Part shown: piece after piece, positions 2,008 through 57,830 of the stretch
How the letters are laid out: every line of letters starts with the position of its first letter
How positions within the stretch are numbered: the stretch's first letter is position 1
Notes under the pieces: model-generated
Told to the model about the DNA's origin: nothing
Database searches by the model: none
What the model saw: only the letters and a program-made list of their open reading frames with translations
Position numbers and translations under genes: made by a program
Assembly (NCBI GenBank): GCA_964558395.1
Contig: CAZLDS010000003.1
Span: forward strand, 13,830-77,829
Reading direction: 5' to 3'
Length of the DNA stretch: 64,000 nt
Source of the DNA: an uncultured bacterium
GTDB lineage: Bacteria > Methylomirabilota > Methylomirabilia > Methylomirabilales > CSP1-5

Positions 2008-3296
2008 TTCGACGCCTCCATGCCTCTGGGGATGAAGGGATCGCCTTTCTGAAGGACCTCGTGGCGCGACGGGCGACGGTGTCCGCCGAGGCAGAAACGG
2101 CCGTGCGTCCCGTCCTCGCCGAGGTGCGCGAGAAAGGCGATACCGCGCTTATGAAATACGCGCAGCGCTACGACGGGGCCTCCCTGACTCCTGCGACGAT
2201 CGGGGTCACAGCAGAAGAAGTCGCGCGGGCTTTTGATGAGCTTCCCCCCGAGGCGATCGCGGCCTTACAGTTGGCCGCAGCACGGATCGAAGCCTTCCAC
2301 CGACGGCAGCTCCCCCGCTCCTGGTTCTCCAGCGAGGAGGGTGCGGTCCTCGGCCAACTCTGCCGGCCACTGGAGACTGTTGGGATCTACATCCCCGGGG
2401 GGAAAGCCGTGTATCCGTCGACGGTTCTGATGAACGGGGTTCCTGCTGCGGTCGCAGGCGTCAAGCGCCGCGTGATGTGCACCCCCGTCACGTCCGACCT
2501 CACGGTGCATCCGGCGGTCCTCGTCACCGCTTCGCTTGCGGGAATCTCGGAAATCTACAAGGTGGGTGGGGCGCACGCGATTGCGGCGTTAGCGTACGGG
2601 ACTGCTTCTATCCCGCGGGTGGACAAGATCGTCGGTCCAGGCAACGTTTACGTCGCGACCGCCAAGCGCTTGGTGGCGGGGGTGGTGGGGATCGACGCGA
2701 TTGCCGGACCGACCGAGGTGGTTGTGGTAGCGGACGAAGCCGCCGATCCCGCGTACGTCGCTGCCGATCTTCTCGCCCAGGCCGAGCATGATGAAATGGC
2801 TATGAGCCTCTGCATTACAGTCAGCGGACCACTCGCTGACAAGGTGGCGGCCGAGCTTCGACGGCAGCTTAATGACCTTCCGCGGCGCATGATCGCCGAG
2901 GCGAGCCTGGCGAAGAACGGGGCCATCCTCTTGGTCCCAACCCTTGACGCCGCGTTCGGGCTGGTCAACGGTATTGCGCCCGAGCATGTGGAACTCCACT
3001 GCCAGGACCCGTGGTCCCATCTGGATCGCGTCCAGCATGCAGGTGCCGTCTTCCTGGGAGCCTTCTCGCCGGAAGCCTTGGGGGACTATCTGGCTGGCCC
3101 GAACCACGTCCTCCCCACAGGGGGGACGGCGCGATTTGCCTCTCCGCTCTCGGTAGAGGACTTTGTCCGCCGCACGAGCCTACTTCAATTTACCGAGGAT
3201 GGGCTGAAGCGGTTGGGCGATCCGGCCATGACGTTAGCGGTTCTCGAAGGGCTGGATGGCCATGCCCGGGCCGTCCGAATACGGCAACGCTCGTGA
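2004..3296 (+). CDS. hisD: histidinol dehydrogenase
   Basis: 430 aa with HisD hallmarks (IDAIAGPTEVVVVAD, AQAEHD, APEHVEL). There is a 4-nt overlap with hisG. Confidence 0.95.
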   Translation: MIRRLHASGDEGIAFLKDLVARRATVSAEAETAVRPVLAEVREKGDTALMKYAQRYDGASLTPATIGVTAEEVARAFDELPPEAIAALQLAAARIEAFHRRQLPRSWFSSEEGAVLGQLCRPLETVGIYIPGGKAVYPSTVLMNGVPAAVAGVKRRVMCTPVTSDLTVHPAVLVTASLAGISEIYKVGGAHAIAALAYGTASIPRVDKIVGPGNVYVATAKRLVAGVVGIDAIAGPTEVVVVADEAADPAYVAADLLAQAEHDEMAMSLCITVSGPLADKVAAELRRQLNDLPRRMIAEASLAKNGAILLVPTLDAAFGLVNGIAPEHVELHCQDPWSHLDRVQHAGAVFLGAFSPEALGDYLAGPNHVLPTGGTARFASPLSVEDFVRRTSLLQFTEDGLKRLGDPAMTLAVLEGLDGHARAVRIRQRS

Positions 3297-3312: not shown

Positions 3313-3915
3313 GTGAAGACGAAATCGACGCATCGGGAGGCGAAGATCCGTCGCCGGACCACTGAAACCGATGTGACGGTCGAGCTGAAGCTCGACGGGC
3401 AGGGGAGCTATCGCATCACGACGGGTCTGCCCTTCTTTGATCATATGCTGGCCCAACTTGCGAAACACGGGCTCTTCGATCTCACGCTTCGTGCTCAGGG
3501 AGATTTGGAGGTGGATCCCCACCACACCATGGAGGATGTGGGGCTGGCCCTCGGCGAGACCTTTGCCCAGGCATTGGGAAACCGCGCTGGAATTCGGCGC
3601 TACGGTCAGGCCACGGTGCCGATGGACGACGCGTTGGGCTGGGTCGCCGTGGACTTGAGTGGTCGACCCTACCTGGCGTATCGGGCTGACGGGCTGGAAG
3701 GGAAGGTCGGGGAGTTTGACGCCGCCCTTCTGAAAGAGTTTTTCCGGGCCTTCGCCATGGCTCTCAGGGCGAATCTGCACATTGGGATTCCGTACGGTGA
3801 GAACACTCACCATATGGCCGAGGCGGTCTTCAAAGCCGCGGGCCGGGCTCTGGACACGGCGGTCGCCCTCGATCCCCGCGTGAAGGGGATTCCGTCGACC
3901 AAAGGCAAACTCTAA
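3313..3915 (+). CDS. hisB: imidazoleglycerol-phosphate dehydratase
   Basis: IGPD sequence (RRTTETDVTVEL...FFDHML...DPHHTMEDVGLALG...GENTHHMAEAVFKA). The start is moved to GTG 3313, which has AAGGAG at 3296-3301, because the track ORF from 3256 overlaps hisD. Confidence 0.9.
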   Translation: MKTKSTHREAKIRRRTTETDVTVELKLDGQGSYRITTGLPFFDHMLAQLAKHGLFDLTLRAQGDLEVDPHHTMEDVGLALGETFAQALGNRAGIRRYGQATVPMDDALGWVAVDLSGRPYLAYRADGLEGKVGEFDAALLKEFFRAFAMALRANLHIGIPYGENTHHMAEAVFKAAGRALDTAVALDPRVKGIPSTKGKL

Positions 3916-3933
3916 GACCGCCTCGCGGCCCTC

Positions 3934-4068
3934 GTTCAGAGTTCATGGTTCATGGAAGTCAGTCATGCCAAAAAGATCCGTTTTTGTTTTTCTCCCTGAG
4001 CGCTGAACTCCGAACCATGAACGGCTTACGTTTGAGCCCTCAACTCCAGACCCTCAACCCTGAGCCAC
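3934..4068. repeat. composite heptamer-repeat hairpin element (GTTCA/TGAAC family) plus a second CCCT-type heptamer run
   Basis: Left arm is GTTCAGA GTTCATG GTTCATG (3934-3954). The core is T-rich with a CAAAAA/TTTTTG mini-hairpin. Right arm is CTGAACT CCGAACC ATGAAC (4003-4022). A further run GAGCCCT CAACTCC AGACCCT CAACCCT GAGCCAC follows at 4034-4068. Confidence 0.85.
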
Positions 4069-4070
4069 GT

Positions 4071-4715
4071 ATGATTGCCATTATCGACAGTGGGATCGCC
4101 AACCTCCGGAGCGTCGAGAAGGGATTCGAGAGGGTCGGGGTTCCGGCGCGCGTGATCCGGGAGCCTGCCGCGCTGCGCGACGCAGCCGGGATTGTCCTCC
4201 CGGGAGTAGGGGCGTTCTCCGATGGGATCGCCACGCTGGAAGCGGCGGGGTTTATTGATCCTCTGTTCCGGGAAATCGAATCTGGGAAAGCCATCCTGGG
4301 GATTTGTCTGGGCCTGCACTTTCTCTTTTCGGAGAGCGAGGAATTCGGCCTACATAAGGGCCTCGATCTGATCCGCGGCCGGGTCCGTCGCTTCCCCGGA
4401 ACCGCCCCGTCCTCAGTCCTCAGTCCTGAGTCCTCTCTCCTGAAGGTTCCCCACATGGGGTGGAATCAGGTGGTCCTCAAAAGAGAGGCCCCAATCATGA
4501 AAGGGATCCTGGACAACTCGTATTTTTACTTCGTGCACTCCTACTACGTAGAGCCAGAGGAAGAGGGCACCGTTGCCGGTATCACAGAATACGGCATCCC
4601 TTTTACCTCCATGATCTGGAAGGACAACCTCTTCGCGACCCAGTTTCATCCGGAAAAGAGCCAAACCCTGGGCCTCCAGATTCTCGCCAATTTTGGTGCG
4701 CTGGCGCAGAAGTAG
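4071..4715 (+). CDS. hisH: imidazole glycerol phosphate synthase, glutamine amidotransferase subunit
   Basis: MIAIIDSG..., GICLGLHFLF (Cys nucleophile), VPHMGWN and FHPEKS motifs. Start is set at ATG 4071, because the track ORF start at 3945 reads through the repeat element. Confidence 0.9.
   Translation: MIAIIDSGIANLRSVEKGFERVGVPARVIREPAALRDAAGIVLPGVGAFSDGIATLEAAGFIDPLFREIESGKAILGICLGLHFLFSESEEFGLHKGLDLIRGRVRRFPGTAPSSVLSPESSLLKVPHMGWNQVVLKREAPIMKGILDNSYFYFVHSYYVEPEEEGTVAGITEYGIPFTSMIWKDNLFATQFHPEKSQTLGLQILANFGALAQK
4409..4443. repeat. intragenic tandem heptamers GTCCTCA GTCCTCA GTCCTGA GTCCTCT CTCCTGA within hisH
   Basis: Period-7 repeat read directly from the sequence. In the hisH frame it is translated as SSVLSPESSLL. 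Confidence 0.8.
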
Positions 4716-4717
4716 AG

Positions 4718-4818
4718 CTGTCACCAGCCCCCTGTCAGCCGTCAGCATCTATATAATAGTAGTCGACTGTCCGCATGGATAAAGATTCTTAGCTGACTCC
4801 TAATAGCTGATCGCTCAA
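4718..4818. repeat. heptamer-repeat hairpin element, GTCAG(C)/(A)GCTGA family
   Basis: Left arm is CTGTCAC CAGCCCC CTGTCAG CCGTCAG (4718-4745). The core is AT-rich and contains TATAAT (4752-4757). Right arm is AGCTGAC TCCTAAT AGCTGAT CGCTCAA (4791-4818). Confidence 0.8.
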
Positions 4819-4829
4819 GAGATGACGTT

Positions 4830-5567
4830 ATGTTGATTATTCCAGCCGTCGACATAAAAAATGGGAAAGCGGTTCGCCTGACCCAAGGGGATCCGAACCG
4901 AGAAATGGTGTACGGAGATGATCCTGTTGGGGTTGCAGAAGCGTGGGAGGCGAGAGGCGCGCCGCGTCTGCATATCGTCGACCTGGATGGAGCATTCGCA
5001 GGGAGTCCGAAGCAGCTAGGACTGATCAGCGCGGCTGCGCGGGCGGTCAAGATTCCGATTCAGGCGGGGGGTGGGCTCCGAACGCTGGAGTCGGTCACTG
5101 CACTCTTCGATGCCGGCATCGCCACGGCGGCCCTCGGGACCTCTGCTATTATGAACCCGCGTTTTCTGGAAGAGGTGTGCACGGCCTATCCGCGCCGGAT
5201 CATCCTCGCGATTGATGCGAAAGAGGGACGGGTGGCAGTCAAAGGGTGGCGCGAGCTTTTGGATCATTCGGTCGGGGCCGTGGTCGAGCGGGTGGCATCA
5301 CTCGAGCTCGGTGCCATTCTCTACACCGATATCCTGAAGGACGGAACAATGGAAGGACCCGATTTTGAGGGATTGCAAGCCGTAGTCACACAGAGCCGTC
5401 ACCCGGTCCTCGCCTCGGGCGGCATCGCGTCCCTGGAAGATATTCGGCGGCTGTGTGCCATGAAAGGTGTGGCGGGCGCCATCGTCGGCAAGGCCCTGTA
5501 CAGCGGCGCGATCGAGCTCGAGGCGGCGCTCCGCGTCGTGGCCGCGGAAACGGTTCGCCGATGCTAG
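4830..5567 (+). CDS. hisA: ProFAR isomerase (1-(5-phosphoribosyl)-5-[(5-phosphoribosylamino)methylideneamino]imidazole-4-carboxamide isomerase)
   Basis: 245 aa with [25 protein letters not shown] and [11 protein letters not shown] motifs. Confidence 0.92.
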
Positions 5568-6382
5568 CAAAACGGATCATCCCCTGCCTTGATGTGAAAG
5601 ATGGGCGTGTGGTCAAGGGGACTCGGTTCGTAGACCTTCGAGACGCGGGGGATCCAGCGGAGGTTGCGGAGCGGTACGATCGGGAGGGGGCTGATGAGCT
5701 CGTCTTCCTCGACATCACCGCCTCGGCCGAACGGCGAAAGATCATAATCGGGGTCGTGGAGCGGACGGCAGAGCGGGCGTTCACCCCGCTGACCGTGGGC
5801 GGGGGGATCCGGGATTTGGAAGACATCCGGGCCATCCTTCTGGCTGGGGCGGATAAGGTCTCTCTCAACACCGCAGCCGTTCAGAATCCGAAGCTGATAC
5901 GCCAGGCGGCTGAACGGTTCGGCAGCCAATGCATCGTTCTCGCCATCGACGCCAAGCGGAGGGAGTTCAGGGTTCAGAGTTCAGGGTTCAGAGAAATACC
6001 AGACACTGATCCATTAACCATGAACCCTGAACTGTCGTGGGAGGTGTATATTCACGGTGGTCGCACACCGACCGGACTCGAAGCGGTACAGTGGGCTGAG
6101 GCGGGAGTGGCGTCTGGGGCGGGGGAGATCCTCCTGACCAGCATGGATCGTGACGGGACGCGGGACGGGTACGATTTGGAGCTTACTGCAGCGGTTGCCG
6201 AGCGTGTGGGCGTCCCAGTGATCGCCTCGGGGGGTGCCGGGACGATGGCGCATCTCTATGAGGCCTTTGCCTTCGGAAAAGCCGATGCGGCCCTTGCCGC
6301 GTCCATCTTTCACTTCCAGGAAATCTCGGTCCCCGAGGCGAAAGCATATCTCAGTGGGCGGGGCATCGTCGTGCGCCCCTAG
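5561..6382 (+). CDS. hisF: imidazole glycerol phosphate synthase, cyclase subunit (carries a 23-aa repeat-encoded insertion)
   Basis: [37 protein letters not shown] and ASGGAG motifs. ATG 5561 overlaps the hisA stop (ATGCTAG). At 273 aa it exceeds the roughly 250 aa that is typical. Confidence 0.92.
5965..6034. repeat. GTTCA/TGAAC heptamer hairpin element inserted in frame in hisF
   Basis: GTTCAGG GTTCAGA GTTCAGG GTTCAGA lies at 5965-5992, followed by a 28-nt spacer. TGAACCCTGAAC at 6021-6032 is the exact reverse complement of 5965-5976. Confidence 0.9.
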
Positions 6383-6399
6383 GGCCGCAGAGCGGCCCT

Positions 6400-6516
6400 G
6401 GTTCATAGTTCATAGTCCACGGTTGAGAGTGAACGGCTCATGGATCAGGGTTCACGGTGGCGAGTAGGGCCTGGGAGATCCGTTCCTGTTCTTGCTCTGA
6501 ACCCTGAACCCTGAAC
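6400..6516. repeat. GTTCA/TGAAC heptamer hairpin element
   Basis: Eight phased heptamers lie at 6400-6455: GGTTCAT AGTTCAT AGTCCAC GGTTGAG AGTGAAC GGCTCAT GGATCAG GGTTCAC. After a spacer comes CTGAACC CTGAACC CTGAAC at 6497-6516. Confidence 0.9.
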
Positions 6517-6537
6517 GATGACGAAGGGAGGAGGATT

Positions 6538-7251
6538 GTGGCCAAACGCCCAGGTGGCTTGAAGTTTGACAAGAAGGGTCTCATTCTGGCCATCGCCCAA
6601 GATGCCAAGACGGGCCAGGTCTTGATGACGGCCTGTATGACCCGGGAGACCCTTCGGAGGACCGTGGAAACCGGCTTTGTGCACTACTACAGCCGGTCTC
6701 GGCGTCGCATCTGGAGGAAGGGGGAAGAGTCCGGGCACGTGCAGCGGGTCCGAGAGATCCGCCTCGACTGCGACGGCGATGCCCTACTCCTTCAGGTAGA
6801 GCAGGACAAGGCCGCCTGCCATTTGGGCTATCGCACATGCTTCTTCCGGCGCGTCAAGGGGGATCTCAAGGCGTCCGCCCCGGTGTTGCACCAGGTCTTT
6901 CGGCCGGAGGCAGTCTACGGCCCCTCTTCGCAAGTCCTCGATGCCGTGTACCAGACCATTCTAATGCGCAAGAAAAAGCCCCCCGCGGGTTCGTACGTGG
7001 CCTCTCTCCTTCAGGAGGGGAAGGCGAGGATCCTCCGGAAGATCGCTGAGGAGGCCTCTGAAGTCATCCTGAGTGCCGAGAAAGGTCGCCGGCAGGAGAT
7101 CGTTTATGAGGTGGCGGACCTCTGGTTTCACACCTTGGTCCTCCTCGGGGCATCAGGGATACCCTTGGATAGGCTCTGGAGGGAGTTCCAGGGGCGGGTA
7201 GGCAAGAGGAAGGAGGAGTACGGCAAAACGAGGCGGAAGAAAAGGGATTGA
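6538..7251 (+). CDS. hisIE: bifunctional phosphoribosyl-AMP cyclohydrolase / phosphoribosyl-ATP pyrophosphatase
   Basis: The N-terminal half is HisI-like ([18 protein letters not shown]...LDCDGDALL...ACH.GYRTCF). The C-terminal half is HisE-like (GSYVASLL..G...[12 protein letters not shown]...EVADLWFH). GTG 6538 follows GGGAGGAGG. Confidence 0.9.
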
Positions 7252-12311: not shown

Positions 12312-14078
12312 ATGACAGATGAGGGGAGAATCGAAGCGCTCAAGGCCCTCACCACCCTGGGGAAGAAAAAAGGATACTTGACCTACGAGGAGGTCAACAC
12401 CAGTCTCCCAGGAGATATCACCTCCGCCGAACAGATTGATCGGATTCTCGGCTTCTTGGATGAAATGGACATCGAAGTGATCGATGCCCCCCGTGAGGCA
12501 GCAGGATCCGGAACGAAGAAAGTGGCGGAGGCCCCGTTGGGTGGACCCGACGCGGAGGTGGATCTCAGCCCGGCGCCCGTGGGCCGTACCGATGACCCGG
12601 TCCGAATGTATCTCCGGGAGATGGGGAAGACACCACTCCTTTCCCGAGAGGGGGAGATCGGAATTGCCAAACGGATCGAGGAGGGGCGCCGCGAGGTCAG
12701 CGAAGCGGTCTGCCAGGCGGGGATCGCTGTCCGCGAGGTTATCTTCTTGGGGGAACGTCTGATTCAGGGCCGACTTCGGGTCGCGGATCTCGTCGCCCTC
12801 AATGATTTTGACGAGATTTCGGAACAGAAGGAAAAGGAGCTGGTTGGTGAGCTTGCGCCAGCTCTCAAGCAACTCCGGCAGGATCAGGAGAAGATCGAGG
12901 ACCTGACCAAACGGCTCGAGCGGGCTGCAAACCAGGGTAACGTCAGGCGGGAGGAGCGCCTAAGCCATGAGAGCCAGGAGCGAAGGGTCCATCAAGCCGA
13001 CCTCTTGCGGCAACTCAACCTTAACCAACGGGTCATCGAAAGGATTGTTGCCCGCATGAGGAGCATTCTGGAGCGAATTGAGCGGGCCGAGCAGGAGATG
13101 AAAGAGTTCAGGCGCTCCACGCGCTTGAGTGCTCCCAATTTCAAAGTGCTCCGCGATACCGCTTTGGGCAACGGTGTCTCTATGCGGACTCTGGTCCGAC
13201 GGACGAAGTTCTCTCGGGAAAAGCTGGAGGAGCTTTTGCGGCAGATCCAGGTGGTTGGCAGGAAGGTCCAACGGGCAGAGCAAGAAGCTGGCACCAGCTC
13301 GAACGAAATGCGCACCCTGCTCCAGGCCATTGGCCGCGGTGAGCGCAAAGCATTAGGCGCCAAGCGGGAGATGGTGGAAGCTAACCTCCGCCTGGTTATT
13401 TCGATTGCAAAGAAGTACACCAATCGGGGCCTCCAGTTTCTGGATTTGATCCAAGAGGGGAATATTGGTCTCATGCGGGCCGTGGAGAAGTTCGAATACC
13501 AGCGAGGGTATAAGTTCTCCACCTATGCCACCTGGTGGATCCGCCAGGCCATCACCCGGGCCATCGCGGATCAAGCGAGGACGATTCGGATTCCGGTCCA
13601 CATGATCGAAACAATCAATAAGTTGATCCGCGCATCCCGACAACTGGTGCAGGAGTATGGTCGGGAACCAAGCCCGGAGGAGATCGCTCAGAAGATCGAT
13701 CTTCCCGTAGATAAAGTGCGAAAGGTCCTCAAGATTGCTCAGGAGCCAATCTCGTTGGAGACCCCCATTGGAGAGGAGGAGGATTCGCACCTCGGGGATT
13801 TCATCGAGGACAAGGGAGCGATCTCTCCGCTGGGTGCGTTCATTGGCGTCAACCTGGGGCATCAGACTGACGAGGTCCTGAACACCTTGACCGAACGGGA
13901 GAAAAAGGTTCTGCGCCTCCGTTTCGGGATCGGGGACGGCGTGGACCACACCCTGGAAGAAGTCGGGCAGCAGTTCGATGTAACCCGGGAGCGGATCCGG
14001 CAGATTGAGGCCAAGGCATTGCGCAAGCTTCGCCATCCCACTCGAGGCCGGAAGCTCCGAAGCTTTGTGGAATCCTAA
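12312..14078 (+). CDS. rpoD: RNA polymerase primary sigma factor
   Basis: Regions 1.1-4.2 are present ([80 protein letters not shown]). ATG 12312 follows GAGGAGG, and the track start at 12210 overlaps dnaG. Confidence 0.95.
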
Positions 14079-14321: not shown

Positions 14322-14448
14322 AGTTCAGGATATAGAGTTCAAGGTTCGTCGAGGAAGGGGAAAACCGGATCTTTTTGGTGTTGCTTGTTTGCGCGAACCA
14401 TAAACCCTAGACCCTGAACCGGATGCTATGAACCGTGAAATGTGAACT
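14322..14448. repeat. GTTCA/TGAAC heptamer hairpin element
   Basis: Left arm is AGTTCAG GATATAG AGTTCAA GGTTCGT (14322-14349). The core is T-rich. Right arm is GCGAACC ATAAACC CTAGACC CTGAACC GGATGCT ATGAACC GTGAAAT GTGAACT (14393-14448). Confidence 0.85.
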
Positions 14449-21247: not shown

Positions 21248-21700
21248 ATGAGTCGACCACCGATTCGACGGCGCCGATTCTACATCCATGGGATTCAGCG
21301 GAAGTATTTATTCCTTTCGCTCGTCCCTATCATTATCTCCTCTTTCTTGATCATTGCTTTCCTCTTCCTCCCGCTGGATACACTCCTGTTCTCCTCGGCC
21401 TCCCCCGCTGCGAAGCAGGCCATCATGCAGGATCTTCGGGGCCTGGGGTTTCGGATCTGGCCAGCCATTTTTATCGCCATGCTTGTGTCGGGTTGCTTGA
21501 GCGTTTTCGTCACCCACCCCTTTGCCGGGCCGATTTACCGGTTCCACCGGTTGGTGGATCAGATGGCGGAGGGCGATCTCTCTGCCCGATTCAAGCTGGG
21601 GAAAGGCGATGATCTCACGGACTTAGAGACCGCCGTGAACCGTGCGCTCGCAAGTCTGGCCGGAACCGTCCAGGACACCAGCGCCCCCTGGGAGATCTGA
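21248..21700 (+). CDS. small two-TM HAMP-domain protein (possibly truncated by a frameshift; see findings)
   Basis: Two hydrophobic helices are followed by P.AGPIYRF.RLVDQMAEGDLSARF.LGKGDDL.DLE.A.N, a HAMP-like region. Confidence 0.6.
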   Translation: MSRPPIRRRRFYIHGIQRKYLFLSLVPIIISSFLIIAFLFLPLDTLLFSSASPAAKQAIMQDLRGLGFRIWPAIFIAMLVSGCLSVFVTHPFAGPIYRFHRLVDQMAEGDLSARFKLGKGDDLTDLETAVNRALASLAGTVQDTSAPWEI

Positions 21701-21860
21701 CCCAGCGGCTCGAAAGGATCCTTTCGGGGGGCTGGGAAGGGCCGGACCTCTTCCCCAAAGAGGATCTCGCTGAACTCCTCGGGAAGGCCCGGGAGGCGCA
21801 GACGGTTCTGGTGCGGCTAAAGGTCGCAGAGGCAAAGACCGGCTGATCCCCTCCCAAAAA

Positions 21861-21902
21861 CCGATAACCGACCACCGACGACCCACGACCCACGACCGCA
21901 AG
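21861..21902. repeat. tandem heptamers CCGATAA CCGACCA CCGACGA CCCACGA CCCACGA CCGCAAG
   Basis: Six phased units read directly from the sequence. Confidence 0.8.
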
Positions 21903-22073
21903 AAGCCCCTGTGATCCCTGCTACGGTTGTTGTTGAATGACGGCCATCGGCCGTCGAAAAGCGGGCATCGGCCTTCGGCGGAATGCCCAGAGGCTGAATC
22001 CCTTGGTGGAAGGCCAGCCTTAGTGATAAAATAACGATGGAAGCTTTCTCCGGGTGAGATAAGCCATGTTGTC

Positions 22074-29390: not shown

Positions 29391-29406
29391 TTGCAGCCAG
29401 AGGCGG

Positions 29407-29512
29407 GAGACCAGAGACTGAGACTGGAGACTAGAGACTGGACCAGGAAGAGACGATCGTGCTTTCCCGTCTCCGGTCTCCTGGCCCTCGTCTCATTGCT
29501 TTAGCTGGTCTC
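29407..29512. repeat. GAGACTG/GTCTC heptamer hairpin element
   Basis: GAGACCA GAGACTG AGACTG GAGACTA GAGACTG GACCAGG lies at 29407-29447. The complementary arm CGTCTCC GGTCTCC TGGCCCT CGTCTCA ... GGTCTCC lies at 29468-29512. Confidence 0.85.
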
Positions 29513-29553: not shown

Positions 29554-31260
29554 TTGCCACAAAGTGAGTGGGTCCGAATCATTTCCCTCGGTGGCCTGGG
29601 GGAAATCGGGATGAACATGTTCGTGGTCGAGACGGCCGATGACATGGTTGTCATCGACGCCGGGTTGATGTTTCCCGATGAGGAAATGCTGGGGATTGAT
29701 GTTGTGATCCCCGACTTCACCTATCTGCTGGAGCACCGCGAGAAGGTTCGTGGACTCATTCTTACCCACGGGCACGAGGACCACACGGGTTCTCTTCCTT
29801 TTGTCCTGAAGGAAATGCCGATCCCCATATACGGGACACCCCTGTCCCTGGGCCTGGCGGCGGAGAAGATCCGGGAGCACGATCTTGAACCTGACCTCCG
29901 GCCGGTCGTTCCCCGGGAGAGGTTTACTTTGGGTCACCTGCGGGCGGAGTGTATGCGCGTTTGCCACAGCATTCCAGATGGCGTGGGCGTTGCCCTGGAG
30001 ACACCGGCAGGGCTCGTTGTCCACGCCGGGGATTTCAAGTTTGATCCCACGCCGGTGGATGGGGAGCTCACCGACTACCACAAGTTTGCCGAATTGGGAG
30101 ACCGCGGGGTTCTGGTGCTCCTCTCCGACTCGACGAATGCTCTGCGGCCTGGGTTTACCCCGTCTGAGCGGACCGTTGGTCAGGCCTTGGAAGAGATCTT
30201 TCGAGCGGCCAGACGGCGGATCATCGTTGCTTGCTTTGCCAGCCACATTCACCGGATCCAACAGATCCTAGACGTCGCGGCGAGGATGGGACGAAGGGTT
30301 GCCGTCCACGGCAAGAGCATGGTCGCGAACACCCGGGTTGCTGCGGATACCGGATACCTGAAAGTTCCCGCTGGTGTCCTCGTTCGCCTGGACGAACTGA
30401 GGCAGCTGTCCCCAGGCGAGACGGTGATCATTGCCACGGGCTCGCAGGGCGAGCCGCTGTCCGCGATCGCTCGGATAGCAGCGGGAGAGCATAGGCAGAT
30501 TGAGGTCACCCCGGGAGACACGGTGATCTTCTCCGCCCGGGTGATTCCGGGAAACGAGAAGTCCATCGCGCGGACCATCAACCAGCTCTTCAAGCGGGGG
30601 GCGGAGGTCATTACCGAGGAACACGCCCCTGTGCATGTGTCGGGCCACCCGTGCCAAGAAGAACTCAAACTCATGCTGAATCTAACCCGACCGAAGTTCT
30701 TTGTCCCAATCCACGGGGAGTACCGACACCGCCATCACCATGCGCGGCTGGCGGCAGCTCTCGGGATTGCCCGGGACCATATTTGTCTGGCGGAGAATGG
30801 GGATATCCTAGAGTTTGCGCCCGACAAGGGAGGAATCGTTGGCAAGGTAGGAGCGGGGCGGGTCTTCGTGGATGGGAAGGGCGTGGGTGATGTGGGGGAT
30901 GCCGTGCTGCGTGAGAGACAGCATCTGGCGAGGGATGGGATGGTGGTGGTCGTGATAGGTCTCCAGACGCAAACCGGAGCGGTGGTGGCAGGACCTGATA
31001 TCATCAGTCGAGGGTTCGCGCATCTACCGGATCAAGAGGTGCTCTTTGATGCGGCTAAGCGGTTGGTGAATGAGATCCTGGCCGGCTCGCCGGAGGAGGA
31101 ACGAAGGGATGCGGCGATCCTGAAGGAGCACGTGAGGGCAGCCGTGCGAAAGTACATTCAGAAAACCTTTGATCGACGACCGATGGTCGTGCCGGTCATC
31201 CTCGAATTGGGGGGGGAGGAGAATGATCGTTCAGAGTTCATGCTTCAACGTGGGGGGTGA
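29554..31260 (+). CDS. rnj: ribonuclease J
   Basis: Metallo-beta-lactamase HGHEDHTG, beta-CASP and C-terminal domains. 568 aa. TTG start after GGAGG. Confidence 0.9.
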   Translation: MPQSEWVRIISLGGLGEIGMNMFVVETADDMVVIDAGLMFPDEEMLGIDVVIPDFTYLLEHREKVRGLILTHGHEDHTGSLPFVLKEMPIPIYGTPLSLGLAAEKIREHDLEPDLRPVVPRERFTLGHLRAECMRVCHSIPDGVGVALETPAGLVVHAGDFKFDPTPVDGELTDYHKFAELGDRGVLVLLSDSTNALRPGFTPSERTVGQALEEIFRAARRRIIVACFASHIHRIQQILDVAARMGRRVAVHGKSMVANTRVAADTGYLKVPAGVLVRLDELRQLSPGETVIIATGSQGEPLSAIARIAAGEHRQIEVTPGDTVIFSARVIPGNEKSIARTINQLFKRGAEVITEEHAPVHVSGHPCQEELKLMLNLTRPKFFVPIHGEYRHRHHHARLAAALGIARDHICLAENGDILEFAPDKGGIVGKVGAGRVFVDGKGVGDVGDAVLRERQHLARDGMVVVVIGLQTQTGAVVAGPDIISRGFAHLPDQEVLFDAAKRLVNEILAGSPEEERRDAAILKEHVRAAVRKYIQKTFDRRPMVVPVILELGGEENDRSEFMLQRGG

Positions 31261-31270
31261 ACTGTGAACC
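31229..31270. repeat. compact GTTCA/TGAAC heptamer hairpin spanning the rnj-ftsK junction
   Basis: Units are GTTCAGA GTTCATG CTTCAAC GTGGGGG GTGAACT GTGAACC. GTTCAGAGTTCA (31229-31240) against TGAACTGTGAAC (31258-31269) is an 11/12 inverted repeat. Confidence 0.85.
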
Positions 31271-34342: not shown

Positions 34343-36313
34343 GTGATTGTTCCCCCGGTAAGAGACTATGTTATGTGGGACATAGTGAAACGGTTCATGG
34401 AGGCCATGCCCGTGGACCGCTGCGCGATCACCCTGTGTACCCCCGACGCCGCCACGGGCCTCGTTGTCATTGGATATGACCGGTGCAAGGAAGATCCCTG
34501 GGTTGAAGGGTTCAATCTGTCCATGGACCGGTACCCAGAGATTCGCCGAGTCCTCGAGACGCGGCAGCCTCTCGTGGTGCCGAACGTCGCCGAGGAACCC
34601 GTGCTTTCTGACATCAAGGATCTGCTGATCGCTCTTCCGGTTCGCTCGATGTTGGTGGTCCCGCTCTTCAGACAGGAGCGTAGCGTAGGCGTCGTGAGCG
34701 TGAGCAGTCGGGATCCGGTTCAAGCCTTCACCCAAGATCAAATTGAGTTGTGTCAGAGTTTGGCGAATCAGGCGGCCCTTGCGCTTGACAAGAATGTTCT
34801 CTTTCAGGAGGCTCAGCAGCGGGCGAATAAGCTCCAGGCGCTCATCCATGTGTCAAAGCGGATGACCGCCTCTTTGAACCTCCAGGACGTCTACGACTTT
34901 GCGGTAAAGGCAGCCGCGGAGTTCTTGGAGGTCCCATGCGTGTGGCTCTGGGTGCCAGACGAGGAGACGCGCGAATTACACGTTCGGGCCCGGTGCGGCC
35001 TGGAAGAGCTTGCTGGGTTGATGGGAGACCGGGTCCCGTATGATCGGGGGGTCTTTGGAAAAATCGTGGAGCGCGGGGAACCTCAGTACATCGCCGACGT
35101 AAAGCAGGAGTCGCTCTGGCTGAGCAAACGGTTCTTGGAACAGGCAGAGATCATCTCCTTCGCCGGTATTCCACTGATGAGCGAGGGTCGCGTCCTCGGG
35201 ATCCTCTCAGTTTTCACTCGCCGCCGGCGTCTCTTCGGTCCAGATGAGCGGAGCTTGATGAGTGTCTTTGCCAGCCAGGCGGCCATCGCTATTGTCAATG
35301 CCAGGGCATACCAGCAGATCCAGTGGTATGCTTCCACGGTGGCAGAGTTGTACGAGGCCGCCACGCAGGTGAGTGGTTCTCTCGACTTGGACGAAACCCT
35401 TCAAAAGATCGCTCGGGGTGCCGCGGCCTCAATGGACGCGGTCTCGAGCACCATCATCCTGTTCGATGAGTTTGGCGAGGTGACGCATGTCGTTGACTGG
35501 GAGGTTGGACAGATCGAGGTGCGGAAGGATGGCATCTCGCGCCAGGTGTGGGGGACCGGGCGCCCCGTTGTTCTGCCCGATTTCGCGAAAACTCCTAGTG
35601 GGATGGTCAATCCCCGGCTGTTGGCGCTTGGGCGGGCAGCTGGGGTCTGTCTCCCGTTGCAGGTCCGAGAGCGGATCCGGGGAGTGATGTGGGTCCACTA
35701 CAATGAACCACGCCGGATCGTCGAGGAAGACCTACACCTCCTCGCCTCCTTTGGCAACCAGGCTGCCATGGCGATCGAGAACGCTCGCCTGTTTACGGAG
35801 ACGCGCCGGCTCGCCAACACTGATGCATTGACTGGACTGTACAATCACCGGTATTTCTATCATCTCCTCGATGCAGAGGTGAAGCGCGCTCGTCGCTACG
35901 GCCGCTCCCTTTCCCTGATCATGCTGGACATAGACGAGTTCAAGGAGTTCAATGACCGATACGGGCATCTCGCGGGCGATGAGGCCTTGCGTTCTCTTTC
36001 GCAGATCCTTCGGAAGAATTCCCGGCGGGTCGATACCGTCGCGCGCTATGGCGGGGAGGAGTTTGCGATAATCCTCCCGGAAACCGACCTCGCCCAAGCT
36101 GGTGTCCAAGCGGAGCGACTTCGTGTATCGGCCGAAGAACATCAGTGGCCGGAAGGTCATCTCACGATTAGTCTCGGGGTGGCCGCCCTGACGCCCGAAA
36201 TGACCAAGGTGGAAGATTTGGTCCGAGATGCGGACCGGCCCCTGTACCACGCCAAGGCGGCCGGGCGCAACCAGGTATGCCTCAGTTCACCTCTTCCCCG
36301 TGAACCCCATTGA
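34343..36313 (+). CDS. GAF-GAF-GAF-GGDEF diguanylate cyclase
   Basis: Three GAF-like blocks are followed by DALTGLYNHRYF...RYGGEEFAIILPE. An RxxD (RRVD) lies 5 residues before GGEEF, where an I-site sits. Start is GTG 34343 or ATG 34373. Confidence 0.88.
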   Translation: MIVPPVRDYVMWDIVKRFMEAMPVDRCAITLCTPDAATGLVVIGYDRCKEDPWVEGFNLSMDRYPEIRRVLETRQPLVVPNVAEEPVLSDIKDLLIALPVRSMLVVPLFRQERSVGVVSVSSRDPVQAFTQDQIELCQSLANQAALALDKNVLFQEAQQRANKLQALIHVSKRMTASLNLQDVYDFAVKAAAEFLEVPCVWLWVPDEETRELHVRARCGLEELAGLMGDRVPYDRGVFGKIVERGEPQYIADVKQESLWLSKRFLEQAEIISFAGIPLMSEGRVLGILSVFTRRRRLFGPDERSLMSVFASQAAIAIVNARAYQQIQWYASTVAELYEAATQVSGSLDLDETLQKIARGAAASMDAVSSTIILFDEFGEVTHVVDWEVGQIEVRKDGISRQVWGTGRPVVLPDFAKTPSGMVNPRLLALGRAAGVCLPLQVRERIRGVMWVHYNEPRRIVEEDLHLLASFGNQAAMAIENARLFTETRRLANTDALTGLYNHRYFYHLLDAEVKRARRYGRSLSLIMLDIDEFKEFNDRYGHLAGDEALRSLSQILRKNSRRVDTVARYGGEEFAIILPETDLAQAGVQAERLRVSAEEHQWPEGHLTISLGVAALTPEMTKVEDLVRDADRPLYHAKAAGRNQVCLSSPLPREPH

Positions 36314-36333
36314 TTCCCCGTGAACCCCATTGA
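36294..36333. repeat. perfect 20-bp tandem duplication TTCCCCGTGAACCCCATTGA x2
   Basis: Copy 1 (36294-36313) ends with the cyclase TGA stop. Copy 2 (36314-36333) is identical. Confidence 0.95.
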
Positions 36334-38673: not shown

Positions 38674-40010
38674 TGGTCGGCCGGAAGGGGACCGCCCAGT
38701 TGCGGAAAGCGGCCGGGGAGATCTTCCAGGCGGCATTGGAAGCGGCGAATCCCCGCGCTTCGATCCACCGCCATCTGCGCCGTGATGGAGAGAACCTCCT
38801 GGTGAATGGAGGCGTGTACGATCTCGGCCAGGGCAAAATCTATGTGGTGGGTGCCGGGAAGGCCGCGGCGGCGATGGCAGGCGCCGTGGAAGAGCTCCTC
38901 GGGGATCGCGTGAGCGACGGCGTGGTTGTGGTGAAGGACGGCCACGGCGTTCCTTTACGGCGCATTCGCACCCACGAGGCGAGTCATCCGCTCCCCGATG
39001 CGCGAGGGGTTGAAGGGACCGCGGCAATTCTCGCCCTGCTTGCCCAGACTCGCCCGGAGGATCTGGTGATAGTCCTGATCTCCGGCGGGGGTTCGGCCCT
39101 GGTGCCGGCTCCCGTCGCAGGCATAGCGCTCCGCGAGAAGCAAACCGTTACGCGCGAGCTTCTCGCCTCCGGGGCCACCATTGAAGAAATCAATGCGGTC
39201 AGGAAACACTGCTCCCGACTCAAGGGGGGGCAGATGGCACGGGCAGTCCAGCCGGCTTCGTGCCTCACGTTGGTGCTCTCGGATGTCATCGACGACCCGT
39301 TGGATGTCATCGCCTCCGGTCCCACAGTCCCGGACCCGACCACGTACGAGGATGCCTTGCGGGTCCTTTCTCGCTACGCGCTGCATGATCGAATGCCCGC
39401 GAGCATTGGGCGGCATCTGGAAAAAGGGGCGCGGGGAGAAGTATCGGAAACCCCGAAAACCGGCGATCCCTGCTTCGAAAAATCGCGGCATGTCATCGTG
39501 GGGAATAACCTGGAGTCCCTCCTGGCGGCCCGAGATCGGGCGGCACGGCTGGGATTTCATACCCTGCTCCTGACCAGAGGCCTGCGCGGAGAGAGTCGGG
39601 AGGTAGCCAGGGTATTAGCCGCCTTTCTTCTGGAGACCCGGCGGTCCGGCCACCCCATTCCGCCCCCGGCCTGCCTGCTCCTGGGGGGAGAGACCACCGT
39701 CACGATCCGTGGGAAAGGCAAGGGGGGGCGAAGTCAAGAACTGGCACTGGCCGTGGCGATCGACATCGCCGGCGCAGAGGGTTGCGTCATTTTCAGTGCC
39801 GGAACCGATGGAAGCGATGGGCCTACCGACGCGGCCGGGGCGGTGGCGGACGGTGAGACCTACCCTCGGGCCAAAGCGGCGGGGTCGGATCCACTCCGCG
39901 CCTTGGAGGACAACGATGCGTATCACTTTTTTCAAAATCTGGGAGACCTGATCCAGACCGGTCCCACCCTGACGAACGTGATGGATGTCACCCTACTCCT
40001 TGTGGGCTAG
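38673..40010 (+). CDS. glycerate 2-kinase / hydroxypyruvate-reductase-like protein (DUF4147 plus MOFRL)
   Basis: About 445 aa. GAGKAA..MA, LISGGGSAL, HCS.LKGG, GGETTV...G.GKGGR.QE.AL and GTDG.DGPTDAAGA are typical of the MOFRL family. The start overlaps the thpR TAA (TAATG). Confidence 0.8.
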   Translation: MVGRKGTAQLRKAAGEIFQAALEAANPRASIHRHLRRDGENLLVNGGVYDLGQGKIYVVGAGKAAAAMAGAVEELLGDRVSDGVVVVKDGHGVPLRRIRTHEASHPLPDARGVEGTAAILALLAQTRPEDLVIVLISGGGSALVPAPVAGIALREKQTVTRELLASGATIEEINAVRKHCSRLKGGQMARAVQPASCLTLVLSDVIDDPLDVIASGPTVPDPTTYEDALRVLSRYALHDRMPASIGRHLEKGARGEVSETPKTGDPCFEKSRHVIVGNNLESLLAARDRAARLGFHTLLLTRGLRGESREVARVLAAFLLETRRSGHPIPPPACLLLGGETTVTIRGKGKGGRSQELALAVAIDIAGAEGCVIFSAGTDGSDGPTDAAGAVADGETYPRAKAAGSDPLRALEDNDAYHFFQNLGDLIQTGPTLTNVMDVTLLLVG

Positions 40011-40065
40011 TCCTGAGTAGATCGAAGAACTAGTCCTGAGCACATCGGAGGGTTAGTGCTTCGAT
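40008..40065. repeat. direct TAGTCCTGAG repeats plus a 7-bp inverted repeat
   Basis: TAGTCCTGAG occurs at 40008-40017 (including the TAG stop) and again at 40031-40040. ATCGAAG (40021-40027) pairs with CTTCGAT (40059-40065). Confidence 0.75.
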
Positions 40066-57520: not shown

Positions 57521-57739
57521 AGCGGGGTCCCCGAGGAGCGCATCTCAGGGGATTCCCGGACGACACCCGACTCGAAAGTATCGAAGGACCCCCAGACGGC
57601 CGCATTGGCCCCCCACGGACCGGTCGTCTTCCATCAGTGCTGGACCCACGGATTAAGCAGCCTTACCTCTGCAGGGTCGCGGTCATCTTGCCGATGGTTG
57701 CCAACTGAAGGCTTTCCTGATCACACCCCAACCCCCGTT

Positions 57740-57830
57740 GGTTCATGGTTTGTGGTTCATAGTTCATGGGGTAAGGTAAAACCCGGACTCGGACTCCCTC
57801 TCATGAACCCTGAACCTTGAATCATGAACG
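57740..57830. repeat. GTTCA/TGAAC heptamer hairpin element
   Basis: Left arm is GGTTCAT GGTTTGT GGTTCAT AGTTCAT (57740-57767). After a spacer comes ATGAACC CTGAACC TTGAATC ATGAACG (57803-57830). Confidence 0.85.

Follow-up and report, generated by a model that had tools for sequence, protein, structure and literature searches.

Palindromic repeats dispersed over a genome and translated in frame within unrelated housekeeping genes, at positions compatible with the protein fold, have been described as Rickettsia palindromic elements (RPEs) (PMC10969869). According to PMC4679880, which summarises Mrazek et al. 2007, certain phyla are rich in tandem repeats of 7-nucleotide (nt) units, most of which lie between genes. 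The TAACTGA repeats of Beggiatoaceae contain stop codons in all three forward frames, and polymerase slippage is the only process proposed in that work for the generation of heptanucleotide repeats (PMC4679880). Here, we describe a block of inverted heptamer arrays located in frame inside hisF, the gene for the cyclase subunit of imidazole glycerol phosphate (IGP) synthase, in a 64,000-nt stretch of DNA (the window; positions 13,830 to 77,829 of GenBank contig CAZLDS010000003.1) from an uncultured bacterium of the order Methylomirabilales (phylum Methylomirabilota, NC10). The stretch had been annotated previously from its letters only (the initial annotation), and we followed up the claims made there on this block. 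HisF is an essential textbook enzyme, which serves as a model for TIM-barrel evolution and allostery. STRR heptamers are reportedly present within a gene of another kind, that for RNase P RNA of heterocystous cyanobacteria, as the title of a 1997 article by Vioque has it.

Results

The product of the gene covers the whole TIGR00735 hisF profile (positions 1-254 of 254) with a score of 382.1 bits, the cut-off being 294.55, and matches HisF structures deposited in PDB at E = 4e-102 to 1e-79. Its catalytic residues, D11 and D130, are invariant in an alignment of 70 sequences, and the gene lies in a hisH-hisA-hisF-hisIE cluster. Between the motifs A-I-D130-A-K-R and W-E-V-Y, on either side of which HisF structures align, the reading frame passes through a block of 69-72 nt, made of two mutually inverted arms of four heptamers each and a short spacer between them (coordinates of all features are given in Table 1). 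The four units of arm 1 agree to the base with the initial annotation, and the observation made there that positions 6021-6032 (TGAACCCTGAAC) are the exact reverse complement of 5965-5976, after a 28-nt gap (5993-6020), was confirmed. The claim of 23 in-frame residues was also correct, as hisF reads through the block and the codon TTC at 5966 encodes residue 136. Units of arm 1 are read in all three frames in turn, giving the peptide FRVQSSGFR.

Repeat searches returned a 14-nt unit present twice at 100%, a tract of period 7 with 3.9 copies (Tandem Repeats Finder, TRF) and inverted arms of 28 nt each (5964-5991 and 6006-6033), 82% complementary and separated by a 14-nt loop. A heptamer tandem repeat is defined by at least three head-to-tail copies, beyond chance, and the block has them. 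When the window was scanned at lag 7, four strong arrays were found, and none in each of 10 shuffles. The sequence GTTCAGGGTTCAG, with at most two mismatches, has 18 matches in the window where 1.7 would be expected, and GTTCANNGTTCANNGTTCA has 11 where 0 would be expected. These counts, well above chance, support the earlier assignment of the block to the GTTCAnn/nnTGAAC family of heptamer hairpins which occupies spacers of the window, where the element takes the form (GTTCAnn)n - spacer - (nnTGAAC)n. The block does not look like a mini-intein; protein splicing calls for Cys, Ser or Thr at both junctions, a terminal His-Asn and a length of at least about 130 amino acids (aa), and the insert of about 23 aa starts with E-F-R, ends with P-E-L and has no HN motif.

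In the protein, residues 135-160 are aligned opposite 4 residues of the T. maritima or T. thermophilus HisF of known structure, and the extra residues begin four residues past the catalytic Asp130. The extra length noticed previously is real, though its size, given as about 23 residues, is a net gain of 22 when measured by structure alignment. An AlphaFold2 model (70 homologues) has a confident barrel, with 175 residues at a predicted local distance difference test (pLDDT) value of at least 90, and superimposes on 1THF, 1KA9 and 1GPW with template modelling (TM) scores of 0.90-0.96 (normalised to target). Insert residues 136-155 have pLDDT below 50 and are flanked by strands 125-133 and 160-164. 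The insert is predicted to form a disordered loop on an intact barrel, and its placement after strand beta-5 of an otherwise intact hisF, in line with the initial proposal of an in-frame addition, is common to the alignment, the profile and the model. By the known architecture of HisF, the insert is placed in the beta5-alpha5 loop, at its beta-hairpin; this is the catalytic side of the barrel, away from the face where HisH docks.

The same site is occupied in the relatives of this bacterium, whose placement in Methylomirabilota (NC10) agrees with the names attached to its closest HisF proteins and to locus L001. We were able to delimit the loop in 118 of the 120 HisF proteins closest to that of the window, which span Methylomirabilales at 93-69% identity; every one of the 118 has an insert of 8-51 aa at exactly this position. 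The insert peptides correspond to heptamers translated in all three frames (FRVQGSGFRE..., PKSEVQSPKSE..., PESRVESPESP..., AESREPRAESREP..., SFEFRVSS...), and period-7 arrays were confirmed in the DNA of 16 loci (designated below by L and a number, as proteins are by P). After rotation into a common register, their units, namely GTTCAGR, GTTCACR, AGTCCAR, GAAGTCC, GAGAGTC, AGTTTCG and GCCGAGA, are one or two substitutions apart. Most of the blocks consist of inverted arms forming hairpins, with z about -4. Blocks of class III (L001, L173) are not hairpins; the unit of their second arm is CCCTCAG, which is also the unit of the hisH array of L001 itself. Judging from this distribution, the hisF site appears to have been occupied since before Methylomirabilales radiated, and its content to be younger, so that the idea of an event, be it insertion or expansion, restricted to this genome has to be abandoned. 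As to proteins of unusual size, P0080 (446 aa) is much longer than other HisF proteins, and P0111 (300 aa) and P0078 have identical cores and blocks of 51 and 34 aa, respectively. A search of metagenome contigs for related loci yielded mostly distant HisF, with just two loci at 75% identity.

Such occupancy bears directly on the possibility that the intergenic GTTCA element jumped recently, in the manner of a MITE, into hisF of this genome. The unit family is indeed common to the block and the neighbouring spacers, and a perfect GTTCAGGGTTCAGGGTTCAG lies 480 nt downstream. However, all relatives, as far as 69% identity, have a block at the site, the spacer of the block is homologous to class I spacers of other species, and no target-site duplication is visible as a direct duplication at the block borders (AGGGAG on the left and CTGTCG on the right), where inverted arms are present. 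Neither an autonomous mobile partner nor a RAYT or transposase was identified, no transposase search having been made. A recent jump is, in our opinion, very unlikely. A conserved 'master' spacer common to the block and the intergenic copies was also considered and rejected, the hisF spacer being unique in the window.

Assemblers are prone to errors at repeats and hairpins, and the block might for this reason be suspected of being an artefact. Nevertheless, the same architecture was found in many independent assemblies produced with different assemblers (metagenome-assembled genomes (MAGs) of NCBI, JGI, ENA, Logan), two Logan samples have identical class I' blocks (L165 and L166), and P0062 occurs in 61 data blocks. 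An assembly artefact is scarcely credible in the face of these recurrences.

The folding energy of the 91-nt hairpin stretch of the window is -35 kcal/mol for RNA (z = -3.6) and -17 kcal/mol for DNA (z = -3.7), and in neither case did any of 200 shuffles fold as well. In an alignment of eight class I/I' sequences, 77.7% of cells are paired, in comparison to 21-39% in slid controls. One could suppose that the hairpin, as RNA or DNA, has been selected for a role in cis in the his operon, for example in mRNA stability or processing, in ribosome pausing for HisF folding or in protein binding, and that its coding capacity is incidental. Besides this excess of pairing, the stability of the hairpin in most alleles (z from -3.6 to -4.6) and the presence of similar elements dotted through the his operon spacers would agree with such a role. 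On the other hand, the class III blocks of L001 and L173, as well as those of L163 and L161, fold no better than shuffles (z +1.0 to -1.2), several arrays of other lineages (see below) are direct repeats only, covariation between the arms is weak, and the stem sequence is not conserved. A scan of positions 3800-6700 against Rfam 15 gave no relevant match and no family at this region, just two chance-level matches elsewhere in that stretch. An intrinsic terminator would have a GC-rich stem followed by a U-run, and here it is GTCGTGGGAGG that comes after the stem, with no U-run. Taking both sides together, we find a cis-acting function quite unlikely.

The relation of the 7-nt unit to the 3-nt reading frame has left a characteristic footprint. 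Since 7 is not a multiple of 3, consecutive units fall in consecutive frames and, as a consequence, an inverted unit nnTGAAC brings its TGA into frame once per three units. In arm 2 of the window, the second unit has TTA in place of the TGA of the family, and it is the sole unit whose TGA would be in frame. In all ten class I/I' sequences the corresponding unit has TTA, TCA, TCC or CCA, and in their out-of-frame arm 2 units TGA is kept in 29 of 30 cases. Accordingly placed in the alignment of eight, columns 23-56 are the only pair never formed (0/8). In the intergenic copies of the window, TGA is present in every unit.

Lengths of the arrays show the same relation. Those of coding arrays are often 7 aa (21 nt, three units) apart, as in the series 26/33/40/19, 29/22/15 and 34/27, and 28 of 98 nearest-neighbour homologue pairs of unequal length differ by 7 aa, although other steps occur too. 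In the hisH-hisA spacer, which contains a heptamer hairpin of the GAGAC type, the array of L172 (850-967) is one 7-nt unit (CGGAGAC) shorter than that of L171 (1551-1675), and the hisF cores of these two loci are 99.7% identical. This difference is direct evidence of single-unit slippage outside the coding sequence. The features of the coding arrays suggest that the block is translated, and that selection would pass those products which are in frame and free of stops.

A unit that is not a multiple of 3 and the occurrence of one-unit slippage in an intergenic array could also point to phase variation, with hisF as a contingency locus toggled by slippage of one or two heptamers. All 120 homologues are, nonetheless, full length and in frame (these are called proteins, which cannot show frameshifted alleles), the changes in length often come in 21-nt steps, each array is no more than about four imperfect units long, and switching off histidine synthesis would bring no obvious benefit; we regard phase variation as extremely improbable. 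Another candidate, a frameshift followed by compensation as the source of the various peptides, was rejected, as arm 1 of L171 and arm 1 of L173 align gap-free. In every unit, the substitutions between these two arms affect the same two positions.

How far two blocks have diverged does not follow from the divergence of their genes. Between the window and L165 the core is 95.3% identical, third codon positions 88% and the insert 69%; between L167 and L082 the core is 71% identical and the block 86%. The loci L170 and L162 are 99-100% identical over 3.2 kb apart from the block, with class I versus class II and a difference confined between GACGCCAAA and TGGGA. Three different blocks are found in L171/L172, L173 and L174, the cores of which are 98.6-99.7% identical, and at least 11 protein clusters with core identity of at least 97% contain 2-3 block classes. 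These comparisons show a cassette-like replacement on near-identical backgrounds. Inversion of the whole element was tried as an origin of the other classes and rejected, since the reverse complement of class I gives neither class II nor class III. A swapped spacer after hisF in L174 was rejected too, because the contig loses synteny there: in this locus (2336-2690, a class II' hisF allele) synteny ends right after hisF, with no hisIE next to it, which could be due to a rearrangement or to a chimeric contig.

A separate problem is whether the loop might be functional and fast-evolving, with diversifying or balancing selection on the HisF and hisH loops keeping divergent alleles, and heptamer DNA being the raw material. 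The coexistence of 2-3 classes in the clusters of near-identical cores would follow from it, and so would the fact that classes are common to several species, class I blocks being about 85% identical, non-repeat spacer included, where cores are 79-87% identical. Moreover, both subunits of IGP synthase carry variable in-frame arrays, and both arrays differ between L174 and L171 (flanks about 99% identical), the hisH-hisA spacer element being identical in the two. Yet no reason is known why HisF and HisH, biosynthetic enzymes of the cytoplasm, should be under diversifying selection. The model predicts disorder for the insert, and the insert peptides are simply heptamers in three frames, whose composition tracks the DNA unit. 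Intergenic arrays swap family at orthologous sites too (L167 versus L171), and some alleles have inserts of just 8-9 aa (P0056, P0069, P0093), which indicates that the loop is dispensable. A selected function of the loop is in our view decidedly improbable.

Period-7 arrays with unrelated units were found in the same HisF loop at seven loci outside NC10, which represent 6-7 unrelated lineages (Table 1), and in six of these seven they are the only heptamer arrays within 1.5-7 kb. The density of arrays is 0.047/kb in non-NC10 loci versus 0.82/kb in NC10 loci; from the background density, hits in the loop would be expected at about 0.7 of the approximately 145 non-NC10 loci, in comparison to six loci observed. 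HisF proteins of the Nitrospirota type have, in the same loop, a conserved and non-periodic insert of 25-35 aa (...GEDWFDDPSLKDV.L...TWAISTH), with lag-7 identity of 0.21-0.28 versus 0.43-0.61 in NC10 blocks, and this insert looks like a true protein loop rather than repeat DNA. Distant orthologues with a homologous loop devoid of period-7 DNA had been named in the initial annotation as the observation that would speak against a repeat element. Same-site loops of this kind do exist, namely those of the Nitrospirota type, but they are unrelated in sequence to the block, and other lineages carry period-7 arrays. Taken together, the Nitrospirota inserts and the foreign heptamer arrays imply that the loop is generally permissive, and heptamer arrays seem to have come to lie in it repeatedly. 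In six further non-NC10 loci (L039, L043, L132, L133, L141, L150), tblastn spans amount to about 1150-1190 nt and may represent hisA joins or other insertions.

Heptamer elements of several families are present elsewhere in the window (Table 1). The array within hisH encodes PSSVLSPESSLL, immediately ahead of the KVPHMGWN motif. This hisH loop is 20 aa long in all NC10 loci, 8-10 aa in L016, L005 and L009 (Rokuibacteriota, Baikal Nitrospirae and Omnitrophota, respectively) and 14-21 aa in two Nitrospirales loci; the array unit varies between genomes (GTCATCG, GACTTCG, CAGCCCT) at constant loop length. One GTTCA-family element covers the last codons and the stop of an RNase J-like open reading frame (ORF; 29554-31260), and the C-terminal tail of its product, ...DRSEFMLQRGG, is thus encoded by the repeat. 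The ACCGACG/CGGTCAT family occupies also the hisF-hisI spacer of L162, L167 and L001. Directly past the hisF stop, ahead of the intergenic heptamer element, lies a GC-rich stem-loop, GGGCCGCAGAGCGGCCC (6383-6400), which is kept with compensating changes in L165, L171-L173 and L167, with no T-run after the stem. Two repeats of other periods were reported by TRF: a perfect 20-nt tandem duplication, TTCCCCGTGAACCCCATTGA, in two copies containing GTGAAC (36294-36333), and a 23-nt repeat in 2.3 copies (40004-40057).

Table 1. Positions of the hisF block, of other heptamer elements in the window and of inserts in the HisF loop of other lineages
Feature	DNA	Position	Strand	Remarks
hisF, cyclase subunit of IGP synthase	window	5561..6382	+	273 aa plus stop; TIGR00735
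Extra loop relative to other HisF	window	5963..6037	+	residues 135-159/160; PDB alignment breaks at 134/161
Arm 1	window	5965..5992	+	four tandem heptamers GTTCAGG GTTCAGA GTTCAGG GTTCAGA
Hairpin loop/spacer GAAATACCAGACA	window	5993..6005	+	single occurrence in window
Arm 2	window	6006..6033	+	four inverted heptamers CTGATCC ATTAACC ATGAACC CTGAACT
Intergenic GTTCA-family heptamer hairpin	window	3934..4065	+	upstream of hisH
In-frame heptamer array within hisH (4071-4715)	window	4405..4441	+	about five CCTCAGT/CCTGAGT units
Intergenic GTTCA-family heptamer hairpin	window	6399..6521	+	between hisF and hisIE; TGA kept in all TGAAC units
Array of arm 2 type only	window	14395-14447		
ACCGACG-unit hairpin, same architecture	window	21859-21975		intergenic, downstream of ORF ending at 21700
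GAGACTR/GTCTCCN-unit hairpin, same architecture	window	29406-29510		between lon and RNase J gene
GTTCA-family element	window	31229-31270		partly overlaps 3' end of RNase J gene
GTTCA-family element	window	57739-57829		spacer
Loop array	L009, Omnitrophota MAG	2328-2435		
Loop array	L083	657-731		HisF closest to Nitrospirales
Loop array	L085	1674-1787		HisF closest to Nitrospirales
Loop array	L090	3397-3543		contig closest to Binatia
Loop array	L106	3397-3483		
Loop array	L115	1838-1921		
Loop array	L159	3397-3480		
Nitrospirota-type non-periodic insert	L035, L042, L099, L102, L108, L117, L124			hisF loop

Discussion

We consider it probable that the block in hisF is a DNA-level repeat, tolerated in a permissive loop, translated as a disordered segment, filtered by selection for frame and stops, and renewed by processes acting at the level of the arrays. 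According to this mechanism, two inverted arrays of 7-nt units of the GTTCAnn family would be located at the tip of the beta-hairpin after strand beta-5, hosted by an insertion-tolerant loop on the catalytic face, and would add to HisF a low-complexity and probably disordered loop of about 22 residues. The added loop most likely does nothing for the enzyme, a neutrality at the protein level that we infer. The content of the arrays would be renewed by gain and loss of units, by copying between arrays or arms, and/or by short-patch recombination, and selection would remove every product that shifts the frame or introduces a stop.

Replacement of one block by another could proceed by more than one route. 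Short-patch homologous recombination of old alleles would fit both the age of the classes and the linked synonymous changes in the flanks. Copying between arrays or arms would fit the identity of the class III arm 2 unit with the hisH unit, as well as the concerted changes at the same positions of units at constant length. A further option would be a process dedicated to rewriting. It is rather unlikely, but conceivable, that a dedicated array-directed mechanism rewrites the arrays in place, with the inner parts of hisF and hisH, among other fixed sites, behaving as hypervariable cassettes. One candidate would be break-induced healing, or templated synthesis, in which each 3' end of a break receives one and the same 7-nt unit; such an addition would result in the 'array - spacer - inverted array' architecture. 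If true, in-place rewriting would explain why heptamer arrays of unrelated phyla are found in the same HisF loop.

Several points weigh against the proposal of a translated, neutral repeat renewed at the array level. The similarity of class I blocks across species implies that the classes are old, and their age is easier to reconcile with recombination among old alleles than with constant rewriting in situ. Beside the block, synonymous differences are concentrated in 2-4 codons, which would be unexpected under a purely array-internal process. Covariation of the arms is weak, with 2 pairs changed on both sides among the eight class I/I' sequences and a score reached by 10 of 500 shuffles, hence maintenance of the hairpin by selection is no more than a possibility. 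Translation of the block is suggested solely by the footprint described above. The protein database used was clustered at 90% identity, which favours the listing of proteins with the same core and different inserts. Finally, the sharp periodicity across the order, as well as the very divergent classes within species-level clusters, would be predicted also by diversifying or balancing selection on a function.

In the literature searched, we found no paper linking Methylomirabilis with heptamer repeats. As far as this literature shows, heptamer hairpins in NC10 genomes and arrays inside both IGP synthase genes are new, and the same applies to the footprint of the conflict between 7 and 3, to block replacement on near-identical backgrounds, and to the repeated occurrence, in different phyla, of heptamer arrays in one and the same loop of HisF. 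If our proposal of a tolerated and translated repeat is correct, an essential enzyme contains a translated piece of repeat DNA throughout an entire order of bacteria, and a housekeeping protein contains an unusually fast-changing cassette. The locus may then be regarded as a natural experiment that probes the tolerance of the HisF beta-5 loop for arbitrary sequence. It also offers a clean readout of the conflict between repeat and frame, in the avoidance of stops in one unit of three and in the 21-nt steps of the gene versus the 7-nt step of the spacer, and a tractable system for learning what generates and renews heptanucleotide repeats in bacteria.

Comparison with the described repeat families reveals both likenesses and differences. 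The block works like an RPE in being palindromic, belonging to a dispersed family and lying in frame at a structurally tolerant position. RPEs are, however, about 100-150 bp long, specific to Rickettsia, not built of tandem heptamers, and have a conserved peptide per family, whereas the NC10 block has 69-72 nt in 7-nt units, lies at a site that swaps unit families, and bears the stop-avoidance footprint that arises from the phase of 7 against 3. In length, host and heptamer make-up it is not a member of the RPE family. With the cyanobacterial STRR and the Beggiatoaceae repeats it shares tandem 7-nt units and a mostly intergenic occurrence of the elements; but the published heptamers are repeated in direct orientation, for the most part ahead of genes or at the ends of proteins, and the NC10 arrays form inverted arms, are interior to a conserved enzyme and swap unit families. 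The units of STRR1-3 are CCCCAGT, TTGGTCA and CAACAGT, and those of the window (GTTCAGR, CCTCAGT, ACCGACG, GAGACTR) are different. By its units and host, the block belongs to neither the STRR nor the TAACTGA family.

Short imperfect palindromes spread across operon spacers are reminiscent also of REP, BIME and REPIN sequences and of MITE-like hairpins. Unlike those, the block has no visible duplication of a target site and, at its ends, no inverted repeats other than the arrays themselves, and period 7 is, to our knowledge, not a feature of REPs. The Nitrospirota-type insert is found in the same loop after beta-5 and has a similar length, but is conserved and non-periodic. On the basis of these comparisons, the hisF block of Methylomirabilales is closest in function to RPEs, and closest in composition to the heptamers of cyanobacteria and Beggiatoaceae.

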